DNA of 64,000 nucleotides from Candidatus Bathyarchaeia archaeon (GTDB lineage: Archaea; Thermoproteota; Bathyarchaeia; Bathyarchaeales; Bathycorpusculaceae), in the NCBI GenBank assembly GCA_038872535.1, contig JAVZJY010000001.1, positions 6,108-70,107 on the forward strand. Direction: 5' to 3'. Position numbers and translations under genes: made by a program. The notes under the pieces were generated by a model. That model made no database searches, was not told where the DNA came from, and was given only the letters and a program-made list of their open reading frames with translations. Positions 10,747 through 21,246 of this stretch are shown here, in pieces (position 1 is the stretch's first letter; each line of letters starts with the position of its first letter).

Positions 10747-11541
10747 TTGAAAGATTTAAACCCTTTTGACATTGGTCGAATAACTGTTACTGATGGAAGA
10801 AAGATTTACGGTTTCACCATCGAGACAAGCTATGGAAAAGGTGTCTTGCGACAACTTGGCAAGTTAGCGGAAAAATACGGGGTCATAGTGCGTTTCATTC
10901 AAATTTCAATGCCAAAACCATCAGATGAAACCGCTAAAGCAATAGTCTTCATAGACTTTTCACAGTCAGAACTCCGGCCAGAAGAGGCGGAAAAAATTCT
11001 TAAAAATCAAAAGTTTGTTAAATCAGTCGAGCTTCTAAAACCAGTGTCTGACAAATTTGTTAGTGATTCACACTATTTTCCATTAACAATAATGGATGAA
11101 AGGGCTCTAATTTTTAGAAAAGAAATTTACGAAGGAATTTTTAAAGGCGTAAGAAGCCAGTTTGGAACGGCAGGCGAAGCCTTTCTTTATTACATAGGAT
11201 TTGAAATTGGAAAACGCGCCTACCTAAGTTATAGCAAATTGTCTGGAACAGAAGATTTCGAAGCCTTAATCGCCACAGCAAAAGCCGTCAACCTAACGCT
11301 GGGCTGGAGCATCCTTAAAGAAGCAAAAATAAATGAAAAAGCAAAAACCGCAACAATCACCATACAAGAAAATTTTGAATGTGACCTCGCAAGAGGACAT
11401 GGAAAAGCTTACAGCCAATTCTACAGAGGAGCCATAGCAGGCATCTTCACCCAATACTTTAAAACAGAAATGAAAGCTGAAGAAACCAAATGCATAGCAA
11501 AAGGAGACCCATACTGCCAATTTGAAATCAAACAAGCATAG
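10747..11541 (+). CDS. V4R (4-vinyl reductase) domain protein
   Basis: 264-aa ORF with a TTG start. The C-terminal C-x5-GD-x2-CQFEI signature is typical of V4R small-molecule-binding domains. Confidence 0.65.
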   Translation: MKDLNPFDIGRITVTDGRKIYGFTIETSYGKGVLRQLGKLAEKYGVIVRFIQISMPKPSDETAKAIVFIDFSQSELRPEEAEKILKNQKFVKSVELLKPVSDKFVSDSHYFPLTIMDERALIFRKEIYEGIFKGVRSQFGTAGEAFLYYIGFEIGKRAYLSYSKLSGTEDFEALIATAKAVNLTLGWSILKEAKINEKAKTATITIQENFECDLARGHGKAYSQFYRGAIAGIFTQYFKTEMKAEETKCIAKGDPYCQFEIKQA

Positions 11542-11687: not shown

Positions 11688-13301
11688 TTAATTGCTCTTT
11701 AGGGTTCTTTCTAAAGCGTCTATCACGTTTTGTTTTCCCATGGCTAGGATGTACGGGCCCAATCTTGGTCCTTGCGGCACGCCCAAGAGAATTGTGTATA
11801 GAGTTTTGAAGAAGTTGGATGGTTGGATGTTATGTTTTTTTGCTGTATTGAATATGGCATTTTGGATTTTTTCCGCCTCATTTTCAACTTTTAGGGTTTC
11901 AATTAATTCTTTTATTGCTTCTTTCTCTTCAAGCGTTAGGCTGACTGCGGTTTCTTTTATTTCTTCAAAATCTCTTATCCAGTTAAAGGCATATTTGATA
12001 CGTTTTCGAAGGTTTTCATCTAGGGTTTGGTCTTTCCGTAAATAGCCGTAACTTCTTAGTTTTTCAGTTATGAAGTCTTCTTCCTTTTCTTTTGGCGCCA
12101 TTTTAGCCAAGAAAGTTAGAAGGTTATATGGCACTTTGATGCTTGGTTTTGAGGGAGGCTTCAGCACCCAGCAGTATTCGTATAAGCCTCGAAGTTTTGC
12201 GAGTTCCTTTTCATCTTTCAGCTTTTTGACCCCAAAATATACGTCTTCTAAATAATCAAGCTCGTTCATGTATGCTGGTATATCTGTAACGTCTAAGGTG
12301 CGGGTTCCAACAAACCTTTTCAACATCAACAAAAGCAGTGATTGGGGCGAACCATAATGGAACCAAACTTGTGGTGTAAAAACGTTTCCCGTGGATTTTG
12401 AAATTTTTCGTCCGCTTTTGTCAAGGAACATTTCATACATGGCGTGGGATGGGGGTTCATAATTGAGTATTTCACGGCAAATTCTGTCGTTTATTCGAAC
12501 AGAGTCGGCTATGTCTTTGCCGTAAGCCTCAAATCTTATGTCAAGGGCTTTCCATCTTGCAGCAAACTCGCCTTTCCATGAAAGTTTGCCTTCGCCCTTT
12601 TTTACGTTGGCTTCGCCTTTGAAACCGCAGCCTTCAATCCATCTTCCCTTAATTTCCATGCCTTCACAAACATAGAGAATTTTATTTTCTTTTGGCAGAT
12701 ATTCTAAGGCTTTGGTTGTGTAGATGCGTCCGCAGTTTTCGCATATTGGGAAATATGGTAGGACTTCCATGTAACGCTCTTGCCCAACTTCTTCTTTGAC
12801 GATTTCGCCGACTCGTTTGGCGTTCAAAAGCAAAACTTCAACTTCTTTATTCAGCAAACCCTTTTCATAAGTTTCCTTTGCAGAAACATAACGATATTCT
12901 ATAGAACATTTATCCAAAGCCTCAAGCAACAGCGAACTCATATGTTTACCGTAACTTTCATGGCAACCGAAGGGGTCGGGAATGTCGGATACTGGAAAAC
13001 CCAAGTATTTTTCAAGAGATTTTGGCAAGCCAGCCGGAACTTTGCGCAATCCATCTTTGTCGTCACAGAAAGCAATCAATTCTGAATTATAGTTTTGTTC
13101 CCTTAAGGCTAACGTAACAGCATATGAGCGTGCAGCATCGCCTAAGCTTCCAATGTGGGGGAAACCAGAGGCGCCCAAGCCCATTTCGGTTCTTATAAGG
13201 TGTAAGCTTCTGCCTAGCTTTCGCTCTCTTTCAATTATTTTTGCTGCCATTTTATCGTACCATGTGCCTCTGCCAATAATCTTCTTGCTCATCGCTGTCA
13301 T
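11688..13301 (-). CDS. lysK: Class I lysyl-tRNA synthetase
   Basis: 537-aa ORF with SGFPHIGSLGD (HIGH-like) and KISKSTGN (KMSKS). The architecture is that of archaeal class I LysRS. Confidence 0.9.
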   Translation of the reverse strand: MTAMSKKIIGRGTWYDKMAAKIIERERKLGRSLHLIRTEMGLGASGFPHIGSLGDAARSYAVTLALREQNYNSELIAFCDDKDGLRKVPAGLPKSLEKYLGFPVSDIPDPFGCHESYGKHMSSLLLEALDKCSIEYRYVSAKETYEKGLLNKEVEVLLLNAKRVGEIVKEEVGQERYMEVLPYFPICENCGRIYTTKALEYLPKENKILYVCEGMEIKGRWIEGCGFKGEANVKKGEGKLSWKGEFAARWKALDIRFEAYGKDIADSVRINDRICREILNYEPPSHAMYEMFLDKSGRKISKSTGNVFTPQVWFHYGSPQSLLLLMLKRFVGTRTLDVTDIPAYMNELDYLEDVYFGVKKLKDEKELAKLRGLYEYCWVLKPPSKPSIKVPYNLLTFLAKMAPKEKEEDFITEKLRSYGYLRKDQTLDENLRKRIKYAFNWIRDFEEIKETAVSLTLEEKEAIKELIETLKVENEAEKIQNAIFNTAKKHNIQPSNFFKTLYTILLGVPQGPRLGPYILAMGKQNVIDALERTLKSN

Positions 13302-13380
13302 GCTCCTAATAGCATAACTAAAAAGTAAATAAAAAGGTTACAGAAATAGTTAGCAGAACCATAAAAATGTGAGGGAATGG

Positions 13381-14415
13381 TTACTCGAGTTTTGTTCCAC
13401 AGTTAGGACAGAACTTAACTCCAGTTTGAACTTCTGCGTTACACTTTGGACATTTGGTTGTAGCTTGTAACGGTGTTCCACAGTTACTACAGAACTTGGT
13501 TCCAGCAGGGTTTGATGTGCCACATTTAGGACATGTGATGCCTCCTGCTTGTAACGGTGCACCGCAGTTGCTGCAGAACTTTGCTGTTTGCGGATTTTGG
13601 AAATTGCATTTTGGACATAACACCATAGGCACTGCTGGCGCTGGTGCCGCTGCTGGTTGAAGCACTTGCGGGAGGATTACTGCTCCGGCTCCTACTGCTG
13701 CTCCTGGGCTTTTTGATAGGCTTTCGGCTGATTTTTGGACTGTTTCCATTCTGAGGACTTCTGTTGCGCCGACTCCAGTTTTTATGTAGAATAGTCTGTC
13801 TCTCCACTCTGGGGTTGTGTCGATTCCCTCAAACTTCACATCAATCAGTTCAAGACCTATCCGCGAAAAGGCATCAAAGAGCACATTTTTTGCGAGAAGG
13901 CTTGTTTCGTCAAGTTTGCCATAAACGTCCGCCAGCGAATACTGGCTTAAGGTGTCGATGAGCCTCTCGTTGAAGTATCCTCTTAGAAAGTTTTGCAGCC
14001 CATCCGTTGTGAAGGCTCCTTGTCCGCCAACAACCTCGTTGACGAAGAGGTTTGGTTCTTCAACTCTGAACCAGAAACCACCAAAGAACTTTAATGGTGC
14101 AAGCTCTTTAGTTTGTCCTTGTGCTCCAAACTTTCCTTGGAACTGTTTTAAAGAGACAAAGACAATTGTGGCTCTAAAAGGAACCTTGTCAAAGCCGGCA
14201 ATTTTTGAAATTATCTTTGTCAGTAATGGCAGGTTTAACGTTGACAAGACATGGCGTCCGGCTCTGAAAACATCGTAGGCTTTTCCGTCCCTGAAGAAAA
14301 CTGCAGCTTCGTATTCGTGAACTATTAGGTTGTCTCCCCAAGCAATTTCTTCCACTGGATATTTCCAAACTATGTCTCCTTCTCTCGCCCCAACCCACTC
14401 AATAACTTTTGGCAC
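13381..14415 (-). CDS. SPFH/band-7 superfamily protein of the YdjI type with three C-terminal zinc ribbons
   Basis: 344 aa. The GTG start is preceded by GGAGGTGA. The N-terminal region (IEWVGAREGDIVWKYP...AVFFRDGK) resembles the YdjI / virion-core-like SPFH family. An Ala/Pro-rich linker is followed by three CPKC-x12-13-C-x-NCG modules. Confidence 0.8.
   Translation of the reverse strand: MPKVIEWVGAREGDIVWKYPVEEIAWGDNLIVHEYEAAVFFRDGKAYDVFRAGRHVLSTLNLPLLTKIISKIAGFDKVPFRATIVFVSLKQFQGKFGAQGQTKELAPLKFFGGFWFRVEEPNLFVNEVVGGQGAFTTDGLQNFLRGYFNERLIDTLSQYSLADVYGKLDETSLLAKNVLFDAFSRIGLELIDVKFEGIDTTPEWRDRLFYIKTGVGATEVLRMETVQKSAESLSKSPGAAVGAGAVILPQVLQPAAAPAPAVPMVLCPKCNFQNPQTAKFCSNCGAPLQAGGITCPKCGTSNPAGTKFCSNCGTPLQATTKCPKCNAEVQTGVKFCPNCGTKLE
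13384..13617 (-). repeat. Tandem in-frame zinc-ribbon modules (three copies; two share an 84-bp DNA period)
   Basis: The plus-strand segment gcttgtaacggtg...cagaactt occurs at 13463 and 13547, with 30 of the first 36 nt identical. The segments encode consecutive CPKC...CSNCG ribbons. Confidence 0.7.
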
Positions 14416-14432
14416 TCCAATTTCACCTCCTT

Positions 14433-15665
14433 TTAAATTACTCCTTTAGGAATCCAAGGTCTTTGTCCAGCAATAACGCTTCCATTACATGCATCAACTA
14501 TCACGGAAAATGATTTGCCGCCCATACGATATTCTATAAACCACCAAGGCGCATATACCAGTTCAGGCTCTTCCATAGGATAGGCTCCAACACTAAAACG
14601 CGAAACAAAAGTGTATCTAGACCTTAACTCTTGAAGGGCTAATCCTTTTGCTTTTTCCTTAGCTTCTTGAGCGCTTATCTCAACATTAAGCGTCTCTTCT
14701 CCTGTTTTCTTGAAGGGTTCCTTCTTATCTAAGGGGATTTTGTAGGTGCCAACATCTGGCTGATATTGGGCTGCTTTACGTGCCACAACAAAGGCATCCA
14801 TTGTCTCGCTTACGGAAACTCTCTCAGTTCTGTCTGTTAAAGCCTTCCCAGCTCCTTTTCCAGCACCGCCAAAAATGCTCCCGAGGGCTCCTCCTAAAGC
14901 TTGCATTGCAACTTCCTGAGCAAGTTGTCCCTTTGTATCCTTCGCTTTCACCAAGGCTTTTTTGCCTTCAAGGTCCCCTTCAAGTTGAACGGTTACAGCC
15001 CAATTCGGAACATAACGAAGGAGAATGGCACCCCATTCGGCACGTTCAGCCATTCCACGAGTTACGAGAATTCCTTTTGCCACATGATTCTTTGCTATTT
15101 CAAGCGTCTGAGAACCAGTAAGCAGTATTGGCAGCATGCTGCATCTTGGAGGCTGTTCACCAGTCGTATTATTAACGTATCCGCAGTAGTTGCAAACTAC
15201 AAGAAATTCCTCTGGATTATACGTAAGTGGAGCACCACAGTGCATGCAAGCTTCAAGTTTAGGTTTCGGTGTTGGCGGCGGTTGCGGTTGAGTTGGAGTG
15301 GGTGCAACAGTTGGCGGTGTCGGTGAAATTCCGCCTAAACTTTTAGCCATTTCCATGGCTTTTTGTTTATCTTGCTCCTTCCACCCAATTAAAGCGCTTG
15401 GATTGGCACATGAGTTTGCCAAAGCTTGTTCCACAACATCCATTAGACATGCTGGTCCGTCAACTTCGACATATACATCCTCTGGTATGCCTCTAACTTT
15501 AATCGTTGCCTTTTCAAAAAACCCCTTTTTTAGCTCAAGCATGAAGCTTCTTTCGCCTGGAATAATTTTCTTGGTGCTCCACCCGATTTGTTTGAGGTAT
15601 TCTGGCAAAACTTGTTGGAAGTTTGCCATTTTTGCTCCGATTTGTCGATAGCGGGCTGAGGTCAT
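14433..15665 (-). CDS. Zinc-ribbon protein B (paralogue of 16595..17347) with extra N-terminal domain and Pro-rich linker
   Basis: 410 aa. The ATG at 15665 overlaps the upstream stop (ATGA). An alternative ATG at 15629 has a GGAG SD. The CMHCGAPL...CNYCGY ribbon and the C-terminal APWWFIEY..GKSFSVIVDACNGSVI segment match the paralogue. Confidence 0.75.
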   Translation of the reverse strand: MTSARYRQIGAKMANFQQVLPEYLKQIGWSTKKIIPGERSFMLELKKGFFEKATIKVRGIPEDVYVEVDGPACLMDVVEQALANSCANPSALIGWKEQDKQKAMEMAKSLGGISPTPPTVAPTPTQPQPPPTPKPKLEACMHCGAPLTYNPEEFLVVCNYCGYVNNTTGEQPPRCSMLPILLTGSQTLEIAKNHVAKGILVTRGMAERAEWGAILLRYVPNWAVTVQLEGDLEGKKALVKAKDTKGQLAQEVAMQALGGALGSIFGGAGKGAGKALTDRTERVSVSETMDAFVVARKAAQYQPDVGTYKIPLDKKEPFKKTGEETLNVEISAQEAKEKAKGLALQELRSRYTFVSRFSVGAYPMEEPELVYAPWWFIEYRMGGKSFSVIVDACNGSVIAGQRPWIPKGVI

Positions 15666-16198
15666 CCTCCCAATCCTCTAAGAACTTCTGACCTCTTGTC
15701 CACGAGTCCGTCTAGTTCCTCAACCTTTGATATTAACTCGTCCATTGCCGTTCTCCACTCGTCTTTTCCCGGTTCCAGTGCGTTTACTTTTTCAACATCG
15801 GCTTTTATTGCTTCGGCTTTTTCTATCAAACTTACGTCATATTCCAATACTGTGTCAAGTTTGTCTTCTTTAACTTTGATGGCGTCAAACATTCCAGCAT
15901 ATCCAGCCACCGCCCGGTCTATACGCTGGGTAACCCTATCAATTCGGGATGTAAGCGTGTCAAATCTAAAAGTGTCTTCATTTGAAAGCTTCTGGATAAG
16001 CAGTGGATTTGCAAATTTTCTTCTGAAAGCGGTTTTCGCAGCCTTAAGTCTATTCACAACTTCCATCCTAACAAGACGGTCACTTTCTCTTCTCAGTTCC
16101 TTCTCTTTGTAGCCTCTATATCCTGGAATGTAGCCCATAATTTTCTCAAGAAGACCCCGTTCTTTTTGCACTTTTCCCAAATAATCTTTTCCACTCAC
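15662..16198 (-). CDS. Alpha-helical protein with basic N-terminal half and acidic C-terminal half (candidate PspA/ESCRT-III-like)
   Basis: 178 aa. The GTG start overlaps the upstream stop (GTGA) and is preceded by GGAGGAG. The sequence has long heptad-like helices and no TM or Cys motifs. The function call is inference only. Confidence 0.7.
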   Translation of the reverse strand: MSGKDYLGKVQKERGLLEKIMGYIPGYRGYKEKELRRESDRLVRMEVVNRLKAAKTAFRRKFANPLLIQKLSNEDTFRFDTLTSRIDRVTQRIDRAVAGYAGMFDAIKVKEDKLDTVLEYDVSLIEKAEAIKADVEKVNALEPGKDEWRTAMDELISKVEELDGLVDKRSEVLRGLGG

Positions 16199-16536
16199 TT
16201 TTTACTCCTCCAATATGCAACTATACCTATAACAGCAACGACAATTAAAAGTATGCCTAAAACAACGAAGGCGTTTACCACATTATAGAAGGCTGAAGTT
16301 GCTGCAACAGCAAACATTATGACGCCCCAAACCAGATAATAAGTGGCTTCCTTATCGGCTATGAAAGAAAAGAGAATAGTATAAACTCCAAGGGGACCAA
16401 GCAGCCAAGCGGGAATATTGAAAATATCAAGAGGAATCATGTTCATACCGTAAACCACCACCGCTAACCCTATCGATATGACAAGAATAACGAGAGCACC
16501 AACATTATAATCGAATATTTTACGTTCAGCTTTCAT
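16195..16536 (-). CDS. Small integral membrane protein (about four TM helices)
   Basis: The ORF track gives 16195..16548 (TTG start). ATG 16536 (MKAERK) has an upstream GGGGA. The rest of the protein is hydrophobic throughout. Confidence 0.7.
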   Translation of the reverse strand: MKAERKIFDYNVGALVILVISIGLAVVVYGMNMIPLDIFNIPAWLLGPLGVYTILFSFIADKEATYYLVWGVIMFAVAATSAFYNVVNAFVVLGILLIVVAVIGIVAYWRSKK

Positions 16537-16594
16537 CTTATTCCCCAAGGCATATTTGACTTATTATTTTGTAATTGCATCTTTTAAAGTTTCG

Positions 16595-17347
16595 TTACAA
16601 TATTCCAAAGCCAGCTGGTGGTATGTCGCCTTTTACAACTGTTCCTGTTGCCCCATCTATTATTAGCTGGTAAGTTTTGCCCTTATACTCATATTTTATA
16701 AACCATATGGGAGCGTGAAGGTAAACTGTTTGGTTAACTTTTATTTCGTTTTCAATTTCAATTATCTTATCCACATCTTGCTGAGCCAAGTACTTATGAT
16801 GCTCCTCAATTTCTTGTTTCGCCCGCTCCAAAGCCTCATCCTTATCAATTTCACTGTTCAATGTTCTAGCATAACCCTCAATCTTCCTAAAATCATAAGG
16901 GATTTTACCCTCTAAAGGCACATCATATTCTCTTGTTGGAAAGTCTGTTGCTTTCCTTGCCAAAATCAACCAATTATATTCCTTTTTGATTTGACCATCT
17001 TTGATGATGGCTGGTGTTATGCGTTCAAAAATTCCTTTATATTTTGTTTCCGCTTCTGCTGTTATAATCCAAAATGGTATGTAGATTAAGGATTTTTCTA
17101 TTATTTTCGATTTTCGAGCAAGGTCTGGAGGCTTTAGAAAACCCGAGGTCATCCAGCTTTTTGCAACTTCTTCAATTTGCGTTGAGTCATATTTGTTCAG
17201 CAGCATTGAGTGTTCAAAAGTGAAGGCTTTTCCAGTTTCTATAACAACAGTGTAACCACAATATTTGCATGTCGCAATTATTTCGCCAGGCTCAAAAGAT
17301 ATTGGAGCACCACAATTTGAACACCTAATTTCTTGAACTATTGCCAT
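16595..17347 (-). CDS. Zinc-ribbon protein A (paralogue of 14433..15665)
   Basis: 250 aa with an N-terminal CSNCGAPI...CKYCGY ribbon and a C-terminal APIWFIKYEYKGKTYQLIIDGATGTVV segment. Confidence 0.75.
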   Translation of the reverse strand: MAIVQEIRCSNCGAPISFEPGEIIATCKYCGYTVVIETGKAFTFEHSMLLNKYDSTQIEEVAKSWMTSGFLKPPDLARKSKIIEKSLIYIPFWIITAEAETKYKGIFERITPAIIKDGQIKKEYNWLILARKATDFPTREYDVPLEGKIPYDFRKIEGYARTLNSEIDKDEALERAKQEIEEHHKYLAQQDVDKIIEIENEIKVNQTVYLHAPIWFIKYEYKGKTYQLIIDGATGTVVKGDIPPAGFGIL

Positions 17348-17354
17348 CTCTGCT

Positions 17355-18782
17355 TCACGCTTTCGATTTTTCCCTTTTTACAATTTCTCTCGCGACAAGA
17401 ACACCAGACGCTGAAGCTTGAACTAAGCCTCGGGTTACACCAGCTCCATCCCCTATAGTGAAGAGGTTGCGAATTTTCGTTTCCAAACAGCTACTTAGCT
17501 GCAGTTTTGAGGAGTAGAATTTCACTTCCACACCATAAAGAATGGTGTCTCTGGAGTAAATGCCGGGAGCTATTTTGTCCAAAGCTTGAAGCATTTCGCG
17601 AATATCAGAAAGATAGCGATATGGCAAAACAAAGCTTAGGTCGCCGGGTGTGGCATTTTTTAATGTGGGGTTGATGACGCTTCTTGATATTCTTTCAGGT
17701 GTTGATCTTCTTCCAGCTTCTAAGTCGCCGAGGCGCTGTATTATTACGCCTCCGCTTAGGAGGTTTGAAAGTCTGGCGAGGTATTTTCCGTAGGCTATTG
17801 GTTCTTTGAATGGTTCTGTGAAGGATGTGCTTACGAGGATGGCGAAGTTCGTGTTTTCTGTTTTTCTTTCAGCGTAGCTTTGACCGTTAACTGTTAAAAC
17901 TCCGTTGTAGGATTCTGTTATAACTTCGCCGTATGGTGCTACGCAAAAGGTGCGAACTTGGTCGTCGAAATGTTTTGAATAATATATAAGCTTAGGTTCA
18001 TAAAGAACGCTTGTTAACTCTTCCATGACTGAGGCTAAAACTTCAACTCTTATTCCAACATCAACAGGATTGTTAAGCGTTTTTAAGCCTAAAGCTTGGG
18101 CTTCTGATTGGAGCCATTCAGCCCCGCTTCTTCCAGGCGCAACAATCACATATTTTCCTAAAAACTTTTCACCATTTACGGTTTCAACACCTTCAACGGC
18201 GTCTCCTTTCAATATGAGTCCTTTAACGTCAGTTTTCGGTTTGAACTCAACCTTGCTGTTTAATTCTTGCCTCATTTTCCTCAGAGTCTGGGCGCATCTT
18301 TCTGTGCCCATGTGTCGAATTTTTTGGCGAATAAGCTTCAAACCAGCCAACGACGCTTTTCGTTCAATCTCTTCTACTTTCTCAACATTCACTCCATAAC
18401 TATGCTCAGGCGCACCAAACTTTAGATAAATGGAATCCACATAGTTTACAAGTTCTTCAAATTCCTTTGACGAAATATATTGGTTGAGCCAACCGCCAAC
18501 TTCTGTGGATAAAGTAAGTTTGCCATCACTAAAGGCTCCGGCGCCTCCCCAACCAGACAAAAGCAAGCATGGTTCGCAGTGAACACATTCGAATCCTCGG
18601 CTTGCTGGACATTTGCGTTGGTTAATGTCTGGACCCCTATCCAATATGAGAACGCTCAAGTTGGTTTTTTCCGTAAGCTCTAAAGCAGAGAATATTCCAG
18701 CTGGACCGGCACCGACGATTATTACATCATACTTCAACGAGTTTGTCTCCTGAAACCCAGAAGTAGATGTGGTAACTTGCAT
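17355..18782 (-). CDS. FAD-dependent oxidoreductase (uncharacterised NAD(FAD)-utilising dehydrogenase family)
   Basis: 475 aa with an N-terminal DVIIVGAGPAGIFSA dinucleotide-binding motif and C-terminal GDGAGVTRG. It ends 8 nt upstream of the zinc-ribbon operon. Confidence 0.85.
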   Translation of the reverse strand: MQVTTSTSGFQETNSLKYDVIIVGAGPAGIFSALELTEKTNLSVLILDRGPDINQRKCPASRGFECVHCEPCLLLSGWGGAGAFSDGKLTLSTEVGGWLNQYISSKEFEELVNYVDSIYLKFGAPEHSYGVNVEKVEEIERKASLAGLKLIRQKIRHMGTERCAQTLRKMRQELNSKVEFKPKTDVKGLILKGDAVEGVETVNGEKFLGKYVIVAPGRSGAEWLQSEAQALGLKTLNNPVDVGIRVEVLASVMEELTSVLYEPKLIYYSKHFDDQVRTFCVAPYGEVITESYNGVLTVNGQSYAERKTENTNFAILVSTSFTEPFKEPIAYGKYLARLSNLLSGGVIIQRLGDLEAGRRSTPERISRSVINPTLKNATPGDLSFVLPYRYLSDIREMLQALDKIAPGIYSRDTILYGVEVKFYSSKLQLSSCLETKIRNLFTIGDGAGVTRGLVQASASGVLVAREIVKREKSKA

Positions 18783-18803: not shown

Positions 18804-19145
18804 TCATTTTTGTGTGTAGGGTATGAGACAAAGAAACTTTACAACTTTTGAGCCATCATTCCTAAACTGATGCTTTTCGTGTGGTGGAATAAAAATAACA
18901 TCGCCAGGCTTAAATTTGCTTTTTTCGCTTCCGCTTTGCACGATGCCTTCGCCTTCTAAAATGAAAACTTCATGTTCCCAAGCATGAGAATGCAGAGGAC
19001 TGTAGCCGCCAGGTTCCATCTCAAAAAACCTCATGGCAAAGTTTTCAGCGCCAATATCCTTTGTTATGAGCCATCTAACTTTCAACTTGAATGTTCCTTT
19101 CTCCGCATCCTTCGCCTCAACACTAGTATAAGGAAAAATTTTCAT
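18804..19145 (-). CDS. Cupin domain protein
   Basis: 113 aa with a G-x5-H-x-H...E and G...P...H cupin motif pair (GGYSPLHSHAWEHEVF ... PPHEKHQFRN). Confidence 0.8.
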   Translation of the reverse strand: MKIFPYTSVEAKDAEKGTFKLKVRWLITKDIGAENFAMRFFEMEPGGYSPLHSHAWEHEVFILEGEGIVQSGSEKSKFKPGDVIFIPPHEKHQFRNDGSKVVKFLCLIPYTQK

Positions 19146-19350
19146 TTAAACCATCCTCAATCAAGATTTTATAAACACACTTCTAAAAGGCACATATTAA
19201 TCTTTTACGGAATATAATCAAAGTGACATCTACTACGAATTCACTTAAAAACGTTTTAATCGTTAGATTTTTGCGAAATAGAAAATCTGTGAGTGAGAAT
19301 TATGTCTTGCCTTTTGATTTAATAATCCCGCCCACATTGGGCTGTTGCGC

Positions 19351-20304
19351 TTATGCAAATAGTTGGATCATCACCAAGGCGATTATAAGAAACGCTAACA
19401 GTTTTGATGCTTTCATGTTGAATTTTTGCGCTTCTTCAATCTTTTTCGCGTCTACGAGCTTCATGATGTAAACGGAGGCTGAAAGGTTGTAGAGGAAAAT
19501 TGCGTATACCGAGAGCATCATTCTGTCAGCTAAAGTTAAGTAACCAACGGGAGGTATGCCGCTAAGCAACGCTAGATGAAAAGTCGCTGCGGACATAAGA
19601 GTTGTCACACCTAAGCCTATTCTCTGGCCGAAGTTCTGGGGCGAGATGAAAAAGGTTAGAAGCGATATTGTTGTTATGACTGCTACCGGCAGAACGCTTT
19701 TGACAAAGGAGGATAGCGTAGGCCTTTTTAGTAGAACGCTGAAAACGAATCTGGAATAAACGTCGCCGCCATAGGAGTGTTCCGTTACTGTGGCTTCAAA
19801 TTCTCCTATTTCCCAACCGGCAACATTAACTTCTTCATCAATATTTGATGTTGGATCTGCTGTAAAGAGTAAATTAGAAGCGTTTAGGTTCTTGTGTTCC
19901 AGCTCCACAGTGAGTGTATGCGTTTCGTAAGGATATCTTGAGAAGTCAAAGGTTTTTATGAAGTCTCCTCTGACACGGTATTCTAAATATCCATGCTCCG
20001 CATCCACTTCAACTTCATACTTCGTTGGAAAACCATTAACAAACTCAAACTCCTTTACCTCTTCTAAGCTTATCTTAGAAGGATCAAACCTAAACCACAG
20101 ATAAAAATCCAAACGGTAACTGCTTGCAGACAAATCCACCTTCTCCACGTTTACAAGCCAAACTCCAACCTCAACATTTGCGGGATTAGATGGAAGGCTT
20201 TCAGCTTTTACATTAAATATCATAGTTGATAAAAACGCTAATAGTAAAGTAAAGAGTAATACATGCTTAGCCTTCATTAAATTCACCATTAACCTTCGCC
20301 TCAT
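19351..20304 (-). CDS. Prokaryotic pentameric ligand-gated ion channel (GLIC/ELIC-like) homologue
   Basis: 317 aa. It has a signal peptide, a beta-rich extracellular domain with a YPYETHTLTVELE (FPFD-Q-like) loop, and M1-M3 helices (RPTLSSF..., QRIGLGVTTLMS..., GYLTLADRMML...). A short loop leads to M4. The start may be an internal Met (20289 or 20277). Confidence 0.8.
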   Translation of the reverse strand: MRRRLMVNLMKAKHVLLFTLLLAFLSTMIFNVKAESLPSNPANVEVGVWLVNVEKVDLSASSYRLDFYLWFRFDPSKISLEEVKEFEFVNGFPTKYEVEVDAEHGYLEYRVRGDFIKTFDFSRYPYETHTLTVELEHKNLNASNLLFTADPTSNIDEEVNVAGWEIGEFEATVTEHSYGGDVYSRFVFSVLLKRPTLSSFVKSVLPVAVITTISLLTFFISPQNFGQRIGLGVTTLMSAATFHLALLSGIPPVGYLTLADRMMLSVYAIFLYNLSASVYIMKLVDAKKIEEAQKFNMKASKLLAFLIIALVMIQLFA

Positions 20305-20531: not shown

Positions 20532-20819
20532 TTAATCTTTTATGGCTTCTAGGAGGCTCATGACGTTCCACAATTTCACTCGCGTATAAGGTGGCATGTT
20601 TGGATCCTGCAAAATTTCATCCAAAATCGAAATAGCGTTCGAAGCCCTAACCGCAGGCGTAAACTCCGTCGTTTGCAAGGCGTCCATGGAATCTTTAGCG
20701 GCTCTTCTAATGTTTCTAGGCGTTGTATTATCCTCAGAAACTGCGCCAAGCACGGCTAATGCTTGTTTTATTCGTTCCTCATACTCTTCAAGCTTCTTCT
20801 TTCGAACCAATGCTGCCAC
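20532..20819 (-). CDS. UPF0147-family small archaeal protein
   Basis: 95 aa. TPRNIRRAA...ILQDPNMPPYTRVKLWNV is typical of UPF0147. It is divergent from a UPF0148-like gene, a common archaeal pairing. Confidence 0.75.
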   Translation of the reverse strand: MAALVRKKKLEEYEERIKQALAVLGAVSEDNTTPRNIRRAAKDSMDALQTTEFTPAVRASNAISILDEILQDPNMPPYTRVKLWNVMSLLEAIKD

Positions 20820-20883: not shown

Positions 20884-21246
20884 TTGTCACAAGAAAAAGA
20901 CGAAGAAAAACACGTTAAACGAATGGCTGACCTACTGCGTCAAGGCTCAACACTCACAGACCTAGCCTGCCCCGCCTGCGCTTCCCCACTTTTTAGATTA
21001 AAAAACGGCGACTTATGGTGTGCAAAATGTGAAAAAAAGGTTATAGTGGTGAAGGAAGGAGAAGAGCCAAAAATTAGGAGTTCTATGGTTCTGGATACGA
21101 TGGAGGCTACACTCTTAACGAAAATACAAGAGATACAAAACAAAATGCAAAGTGAACAAAACATAGAAGAGCTTCAGAAACTCGGCAATGCACTATCTGA
21201 CTTGTTGGAAAATCTTGAAAAGATAAGAAAAGTTAAAAGATTTTAA
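20884..21246 (+). CDS. UPF0148 / autoantigen p27-like zinc-ribbon protein
   Basis: 120 aa with a TTG start. It has a CPACASPLF...WCAKCEKK ribbon followed by a helical tail. Confidence 0.7.
   Translation: MSQEKDEEKHVKRMADLLRQGSTLTDLACPACASPLFRLKNGDLWCAKCEKKVIVVKEGEEPKIRSSMVLDTMEATLLTKIQEIQNKMQSEQNIEELQKLGNALSDLLENLEKIRKVKRF

Follow-up and report, generated by a model that had tools for sequence, protein, structure and literature searches.

Organisation of the gene cluster

A compact cluster of five genes is located on the minus strand at positions 13381-17347 of a 64,000-nucleotide stretch of contig JAVZJY010000001.1 from a Candidatus Bathyarchaeia archaeon; the whole of this stretch is termed the window. 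In the order of transcription the genes are labelled A, D, C, B and SPFH, and they encode two zinc-ribbon proteins (A and B), a small membrane protein (D), an all-helical protein (C) and a protein with an SPFH domain. The original prediction had described the locus as an archaeal analogue of the Bacillus subtilis ydjGHI genes, with C as an ESCRT-III/PspA-like subunit in the place of PspA. The open reading frame (ORF) listing gives five co-directional minus-strand ORFs at the coordinates that had been predicted. The features of the cluster are as follows.

16595-17347, minus strand: A, zinc-ribbon protein, YdjG/SamG-like, ORF of 250 amino acids (aa)
16195-16536, minus strand: D, small membrane protein with about four transmembrane (TM) helices, ORF of 113 aa from the ATG at 16536
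16205-16211, minus strand: Shine-Dalgarno-like GGAGGAG, 6 nt upstream of the GTG start of C, read from the sequence
15662-16198, minus strand: C, all-helical protein, ORF of 178 aa
14433-15665, minus strand: B, paralogue of A, ORF of 410 aa
14424-14430, minus strand: Shine-Dalgarno-like GGAGGTG, 8 nt upstream of the GTG start of SPFH at 14415, read from the sequence
13381-14415, minus strand: SPFH, YdjI/SamI-type protein, ORF of 344 aa

The genes are tightly packed. The stop codon of D overlaps the start codon of C as GTGA (16198-16195), and the stop codon of C overlaps the start codon of B as ATGA (15665-15662). B ends with TAA at 14435-14433 and is followed by a gap of 17 nt, which contains GGAGGTG (14430-14424), before SPFH starts. 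Reading of the sequence thus bears out both predicted overlaps as well as the GGAGG-type Shine-Dalgarno sequences before 16198 and 14415. The gap between A and D is 58 nt with the ATG start of D and 46 nt with an alternative TTG start at 16548, which is included in the ORF listing and would give a protein of 117 aa. A-T-rich stretches are found 30-50 nt upstream of the D ATG (16560-16589), and oligo-T runs follow the stop codon of SPFH (about 13331-13365). C and A have their closest homologues in metagenome-assembled genomes (MAGs) of Candidatus Bathyarchaeia, with up to 100% identity. The PADLOC defence models gave no match to the five cluster proteins except for a meaningless one to DruC at E=0.003.

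Comparison of the components with YdjG, YdjH and YdjI

The reference for YdjG, YdjH and YdjI was a B. subtilis-type pspA-ydjG-ydjH-ydjI locus from a metagenome (L082), found via the ydjG primer printed in PMC8581546. Residues 16-203 of SPFH match the Pfam family Band_7_1 (PF13421) with 92.3 bits against a cut-off of 24 (E=4.4e-26). An Ala/Pro-rich linker of low complexity connects this domain to three C-terminal Cys4 zinc ribbons, and the Pfam families Zn_Ribbon_1 and DZR are matched at residues 267-343. YdjI has Band_7_1 (E=8e-43) and a zinc ribbon in Pfam, and the two proteins align by BLASTP over their full length (residues 1-343 of SPFH with 8-322 of YdjI, 21% identity, E=5e-12). The hydrophobicity scan of SPFH shows neither a TM helix nor another hydrophobic segment. 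By its domains, its lack of a TM helix and the full-length alignment, SPFH is of the YdjI type, as had been proposed.

A and B are paralogues and align from the ribbon through the C-terminal hairpin with 27% identity (BLASTP, E=2e-25). Residues 4-248 of A align with residues 51-313 of YdjG, from the second ribbon of YdjG to the C-terminal β-hairpin region (BLASTP, E=6e-13); B aligns with YdjG over the ribbon and the beginning of the domain that follows (BLASTP, E=3e-6). Both the predicted paralogy and the predicted correspondence of A and B to YdjG are therefore supported by homology. In the AlphaFold2 (AF2) model of A, with a predicted local distance difference test score (pLDDT) of 73.8, one N-terminal Cys4 ribbon is followed by two predicted units, each made of a helix and a long β-hairpin. 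Three elements set B apart from A: an extra domain of about 135 aa at the N-terminus, a linker rich in Pro and Thr, and an insertion rich in Gly and Ala. No TM segment was seen in the hydrophobicity scan of A and B. A C-terminal TM segment is present in 17 of 18 mid-size A/B paralogues (261-360 aa) of Caldarchaeales, Conexivisphaerales and other Thermoproteota, and because it is retained in these paralogues the A/B family is YdjG-like in architecture as well as in sequence. Judged by its sequence, A is a soluble YdjG/SamG-like protein.

The YdjG-specific domain has been described as related to YpeB (PMC11237479), and some homologues of A carry the NCBI name 'PepSY domain-containing protein'. 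The PepSY match in the Pfam scan is weak (E=0.59). Foldseek with the A model found nothing significant, YpeB (5boi) being located at rank 47 with E=2.7, and this search gives no structural confirmation of a PepSY/YpeB fold.

The hydrophobic stretches of D fit about four TM helices, in agreement with the predicted topology, and D is the only membrane-spanning product of the cluster. No match to D was found at the Pfam or NCBIfam cut-off or in PADLOC. YdjH matches TPM (PF04536) in Pfam at E=3e-23; D has neither a TPM domain nor similarity to YdjH, and D as a relative of YdjH was rejected. The proposal that D is the counterpart of YdjH by descent is thus not sustained, and the correspondence between the two would at most be one of analogy.

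The helical protein C and its family

C has a net charge of +10 over residues 1-89 and of -7 over residues 90-178. Its AF2 model (pLDDT 79.5; predicted template modelling score, pTM, 0.77) consists of five helices (residues 3-23, 32-61, 73-100, 114-139 and 146-177), so the description of C as all-helical, with a basic N-terminal and an acidic C-terminal half, holds. The polarity is kept in the family: the N-terminal part is basic in 91% and the C-terminal part acidic in 99% of 90 members. The conserved positions cluster in two motifs, IPGYxGYKEKExRRExDxLxR (residues 24-44) and AxxGYAGxFDAxKVxExxLDxxxxxD (residues 96-121).

No Pfam family is matched by C at the gathering score. The one meaningful match of C in the family libraries is to NCBIfam NF047596 ('LIMLP_15305 family protein'), with 57.6 bits (E=1.4e-15) against a curated equivalog cut-off of 210, and the alignment runs end to end (C residues 5-172 with model positions 6-172 of 175). 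As the match is end-to-end but below the cut-off, C is a distant relative of NF047596 and not an equivalog. In the literature, LIMLP_15305 appears only as a locus tag in a Leptospira small RNA table, with no function described. Profile search of 1.84 billion cluster representatives returned at least 1,120 clusters at 50% identity (E≤1e-3), nearly all of 165-185 aa. The C family is large and uncharacterised, with no matching Pfam model, and the searched literature contained no description of the family or of the pairing of C with Band_7_1 SPFH proteins. A tblastn search of plasmids with one bacterial C gave no match.

Genomic context of C in archaea and bacteria

The GTDB species representatives were scanned with an 18-sequence alignment of C, which gave at least 583 stretches with C relatives; the best 80 loci were fetched, ORFs were called anew and gene contexts were assigned by iterated hidden Markov model (HMM) searches seeded with the window proteins. 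The 80 loci belong mostly to Bathyarchaeia, and the remainder come from Caldarchaeales, Pyrobaculum, Conexivisphaerales, other Thermoproteota, Thermogutta (Planctomycetota) and one Clostridia MAG. A Band_7_1-type SPFH gene on the same strand adjoins C in 78 of the 80 and follows it directly in 70, with a median gap of 1 nt. Both loci that lack an adjoining SPFH gene sit near contig ends.

A D-type gene is located just before C or just after SPFH in most loci (71 D-family ORFs), and of the 32 cases in which D precedes C, 27 show a 4-nt overlap of the two genes. The copy number of YdjG-like genes ranges from zero to three. The commonest layouts are AB-C-SPFH-D (20 loci), D-C-SPFH (18) and AB-D-C-SPFH (9). 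The conserved archaeal core thus consists of the three genes D, C and SPFH, and the YdjG-like genes are variable; B, which has a counterpart between C and SPFH in only about 8 of the 80 loci (in both Bathyarchaeia and Caldarchaeales), is an accessory component. Recurrence of the arrangement in 80 loci of other genomes confirms that the locus is a conserved operon-like unit. The predicted five-gene set stands only in part: C followed by SPFH, together with D, is constant, but the exact order A-D-C-B-SPFH belongs to a minority (AB-D-C-AB-SPFH in 4 of 80 loci). PspA was not found in the window or in the 80 related loci with a three-sequence PspA HMM, in accordance with the prediction of an operon without PspA.

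In bacteria, C is followed directly by a Band_7_1 gene in Thermogutta (L057), in a Firmicutes MAG and on two further contigs (L088 and L091). The order C, PspA_IM30, Band_7_1 with zinc ribbons is found in three separate bacterial clusters at 50% identity (loci L083, L084-86 and L094-95). As C and PspA are encoded there side by side, C is most simply a separate component and not a disguised PspA. In two of these three clusters C is fused to a C-terminal DUF4178 (P0227 and P0233, loci L083 and L084), a domain described as a component of PspA-polyamine operons (PMC11237479); in the third, C has a long low-complexity tail. L084, L094 and L091 have an upstream protein with two TM helices (2TM) that ends in a YdjG-type ribbon. 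A gene for a DUF2207 membrane protein lies just upstream of the 2TM-ribbon/C/(PspA)/SPFH genes on two unrelated contigs (L091, 2851-4818; L094, 3929-5863); the protein may also belong to the bacterial form of the module.

Other bacterial members of the C family carry additional elements. In P0225 an N-terminal zinc ribbon is joined to the C domain by a Pro-rich linker, and P0253 and P0263 have an N-terminal TM helix. The C-terminal tail of the SPFH partner differs likewise: an HTH_17 DNA-binding domain replaces the zinc ribbons in L088 (922-1965) and L091 (6350-7402), and the tail of the Thermogutta protein (L057, 8605-10011) is a domain of about 130 aa with no assignment. C is the constant element, and the SPFH tail seems to be exchangeable as a module.

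Proposed role of the module

We favour, with a probability of roughly 0.6, the reading that the five genes specify a membrane-associated SPFH scaffold module of the same kind as YdjGHI/SamGHI, in which C is a distinct component and not a divergent PspA. The evolutionary core is the pair of C and a cytosolic Band_7_1 SPFH protein, a pairing that predates the link to PspA and is more widely distributed. D would supply the membrane anchor in Thermoproteota; elsewhere this would be provided by a TM-bearing YdjG-like protein, a 2TM-ribbon protein or a TM helix on C itself. C, presumably translated in a coupled manner right after D and right before SPFH, would be a dedicated partner or adaptor that, on the cytoplasmic side of the membrane, docks to the SPFH oligomer or assembles together with it. 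Of the two conserved motifs of C, one lies where helix 1 starts and the other in the loop that joins helices 2 and 3; the up-down helix topology would bring both to the same end of the bundle, where the SPFH oligomer is proposed to dock. For A and B we propose a YdjG-like part as ribbon-bearing accessory recruiters or regulators, and for the SPFH tail, whether zinc ribbons, HTH or another domain, that of a replaceable output or interaction module. If the archaeon uses an effector of the ESCRT-III/PspA type, its gene would lie elsewhere.

In B. subtilis, YdjG and YdjH recruit the soluble YdjI, which in turn recruits PspA, and the same proteins under the names SamG, SamH and SamI form a membrane stress complex with two effects, the localisation of PspA and an influence on transcription (PMC8581546; bioRxiv 10.64898/2026.02.06.704340). 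Either role is possible for the archaeal module.

Several points weigh against this proposal. The C-SPFH pair of Thermogutta has no obvious adjoining membrane protein, and in L070 the gene after C encodes a zinc-ribbon-TM protein, with no SPFH gene within the 0.7 kb available. We infer the roles of D, C, A and B solely from gene order, fusions and predicted topology, and the co-location of the two C motifs from the helix topology of the model.

The alternative put forward originally makes C a highly divergent ESCRT-III/PspA-like subunit that replaces PspA, is recruited by SPFH and polymerises for membrane repair or remodelling. The all-helical model of C, the conserved charge polarity and the presence of YdjG-like and YdjI-like genes without PspA in the archaeal operons would fit such a protein, and phage PspA is located at rank 4 of the Foldseek search of BFVD with the C model, though not significantly (E=0.08, TM score 0.27). 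The remaining comparisons do not bear it out. In Pfam, C hit neither PspA_IM30 nor Snf7; for the 90 C-family members, scanned at E≤10, neither family was among the 25 commonest, and these members gave scattered coiled-coil noise with no recurrent family. Among all PDB sequences, neither phmmer with C alone nor the 90-sequence profile picked up a PspA, Vipp1 or ESCRT-III chain at E≤10; the best E-value (0.02) belonged to designed coiled coils. Comparison by hhalign gave a probability of 0.5% with B. subtilis PspA and of 0.3% with the three-sequence PspA alignment. Foldseek of the C model against PDB and BFVD returned nothing at E≤0.001; designed or generic helical bundles were at the top, and CdvB2 was at rank 46 with a probability of 0.13. 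The model itself has four similar helices of about 26-32 residues and no long α1-α2 hairpin of the ESCRT-III fold. The basic-N/acidic-C polarity of C is real and conserved, but it is not specific to the ESCRT-III superfamily. No support for a new ESCRT-III-like protein was found, and C stands beside a real PspA in the three bacterial clusters. C is unlikely to be a cryptic PspA and more probably a dedicated partner of YdjI-type SPFH proteins; a polymerising replacement for PspA we consider improbable. A related suggestion is that C is a structurally new, non-homologous functional analogue of ESCRT-III/PspA, that is, a membrane-active helical effector recruited by YdjI-type SPFH proteins, both in archaea without an operon-encoded PspA and beside PspA in some bacteria. 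This is speculative and rather doubtful; if true, the polarity of C would reflect lipid binding combined with autoinhibition.

The scaffold reading overlaps with another, in which the products form mainly a signalling or sensor complex instead of a repair scaffold: the SPFH oligomer would keep an output domain at the membrane, and C would regulate its assembly or release on envelope stress. Some bacterial SPFH partners of C end in HTH_17 in the place of zinc ribbons, and the invariant positions of C (Pro, Gly, Tyr, Arg, Asp and Glu) include none that look catalytic, which would agree with a regulatory protein. DNA binding by the zinc ribbons is assumed here, however, and the archaeal operons of the 80 loci have no conserved regulator or kinase. 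Sequence alone cannot separate this reading from the scaffold module, and we give it a modest chance of being right. That the five genes are unrelated neighbours packed by chance is hardly credible. Short intergenic gaps are frequent in compact archaeal genomes, and the flavin adenine dinucleotide (FAD)-dependent oxidoreductase, cupin and lysyl-tRNA synthetase (LysRS) genes next to the cluster are likewise syntenic without an evident functional link; but C and SPFH remain adjacent in Bathyarchaeia, Caldarchaeales, Pyrobaculum, Conexivisphaerales, Planctomycetota, Firmicutes and other bacteria with differing flanking genes, and two of the gene families have counterparts in the B. subtilis ydjGHI operon, whose genes are linked by experiment. 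The conservation data effectively refute a chance grouping.

Neighbouring genes

The genes that surround the cluster in the window are listed below.

10747-11541, plus strand: V4R-domain protein
11688-13301, minus strand: class I LysRS, directly downstream of SPFH
17355-18782, minus strand: FAD-dependent oxidoreductase (FAD-depend_C family)
18804-19145, minus strand: cupin gene
20532-20819, minus strand: UPF0147 protein
20884-21246, plus strand: zinc-ribbon protein of the Auto_anti-p27 family

The V4R, UPF0147, Auto_anti-p27 and LysRS neighbours are ordinary genes. The gap between the FAD oxidoreductase gene and A is 8 nt. Synteny with the cupin, FAD oxidoreductase and downstream LysRS genes is confined to part of Bathyarchaeia, and a functional link of the cluster to the oxidoreductase and the cupin is not borne out. 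Both were rejected as members of the module, as they are missing from many D-C-SPFH loci. In the Bathyarchaeia loci L013 and L080, the oxidoreductase and cupin genes stay attached to the A-type gene with gaps of 4-8 nt, and 4-5 kb lie between A and the D/C-SPFH genes; the oxidoreductase and the cupin may represent a second association of A that is specific to this lineage.

A TTTATAAAA element is located at 19167-19175 on the minus strand, with its centre about 26 nt before the start codon of the cupin gene (ATG at 19145). The position of TTTATAAAA fits a candidate archaeal TATA box that would drive a leaderless transcript. Further upstream, the minus-strand ORF at 19351-20304 encodes a 317-aa protein whose N-terminus is signal-like. 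The protein weakly matches Neur_chan_memb, the model of the membrane-spanning region of neurotransmitter-gated ion channels (E=3.8e-6; 27.8 bits, just under the cut-off of 28.1). On this sequence match, it may be a homologue of the prokaryotic pentameric ligand-gated channels in a bathyarchaeon.

Comparison with known systems

C has in common with the PspA/Vipp1/ESCRT-III superfamily an all-helical structure, basic N-terminal and acidic C-terminal parts and a YdjI-type SPFH neighbourhood. It differs in its predicted compact bundle with other helix lengths, compared with the long-hairpin fold of the superfamily, and has no detectable similarity to it in sequence, profile or fold.

In the SPFH-NfeD and HflK/C-type operons (stomatin-NfeD, QmcA-YbbJ, FloA/FloT-YuaF/YqiJ), the SPFH scaffold shares its operon with a membrane protein and/or a small partner dedicated to it. 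The NfeD partners are β-rich membrane proteins with an OB fold, and the SPFH proteins of these operons themselves contain a TM segment or hairpin as well as a long coiled coil. The module of the window shares the principle of a scaffold and its partner in one operon. Its SPFH protein, in contrast, is soluble, with only a short helical segment after the SPFH domain, and its partner C is soluble and helical.

The methanogen 'Meth_adaptin' ESCRT loci hold SPFH, coiled-coil and zinc-ribbon proteins together with Vps4, ESCRT-III and adaptin-appendage genes, according to the sections consulted of Makarova et al. 2024 (PMC11188069), in which the authors connect archaeal zinc-ribbon SPFH proteins conceptually to the link between YdjI and PspA/ESCRT-III. 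An archaeal SPFH protein with a zinc ribbon is common to these loci and the window; the Vps4, ESCRT-III and adaptin-appendage genes are absent from the window locus, and the C family is not mentioned in those sections (PMC11188069).

The bacterial 2TM-ribbon/(DUF2207)/C/PspA/SPFH operons share with the window the C family, an SPFH protein with Band_7_1 and ribbons, the position of C upstream of SPFH and a membrane protein with a YdjG-type ribbon. They differ from it by a true PspA between C and SPFH, by the fusion of C to DUF4178 or to a low-complexity tail, and by the lack of a D-type 4-TM protein and of the full YdjG-like α/β module.

The B. subtilis pspA-ydjGHI (samGHI) operon and the window cluster are both tightly packed, co-directional operons with a membrane protein. 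YdjI and the window SPFH share Band_7_1, a low-complexity linker, C-terminal ribbon(s) and the absence of a TM helix, with a single Pfam zinc-ribbon match in YdjI compared with three ribbons in the window protein. YdjG has two ribbons and a C-terminal TM segment, whereas A and B each have one ribbon, lack the first ribbon of YdjG and have no TM segment. The membrane protein is the TPM-domain YdjH in B. subtilis and the 113-aa, 4-TM D in the window. pspA is part of the B. subtilis operon and is missing from the archaeal one, which has the extra conserved C; no C is present in the B. subtilis-type ydj locus (L082).

The domain make-up of YdjG, YdjH and YdjI has already been described (PMC11237479), and the link of YdjI-type SPFH proteins to PspA/ESCRT-III is already published (PMC8581546, PMC11237479, PMC11188069). 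New here is a conserved subunit family with no described role, C, in near-obligate pairing with Band_7_1 SPFH proteins. The SPFH/PspA field thereby gains a concrete, testable new subunit, the SamGHI-type module is extended to Thermoproteota, and a family of more than 1,000 sequence clusters receives a functional context. To our knowledge, work on SPFH proteins of the YdjI/SamI type has until now been confined to B. subtilis, where YdjI is viewed as the bridge from YdjG/YdjH to PspA. The loci described here suggest that the most conserved partner of these proteins across archaea and bacteria is C and not PspA, and that PspA, the YdjG-like proteins and the membrane anchor are interchangeable additions to this pair.

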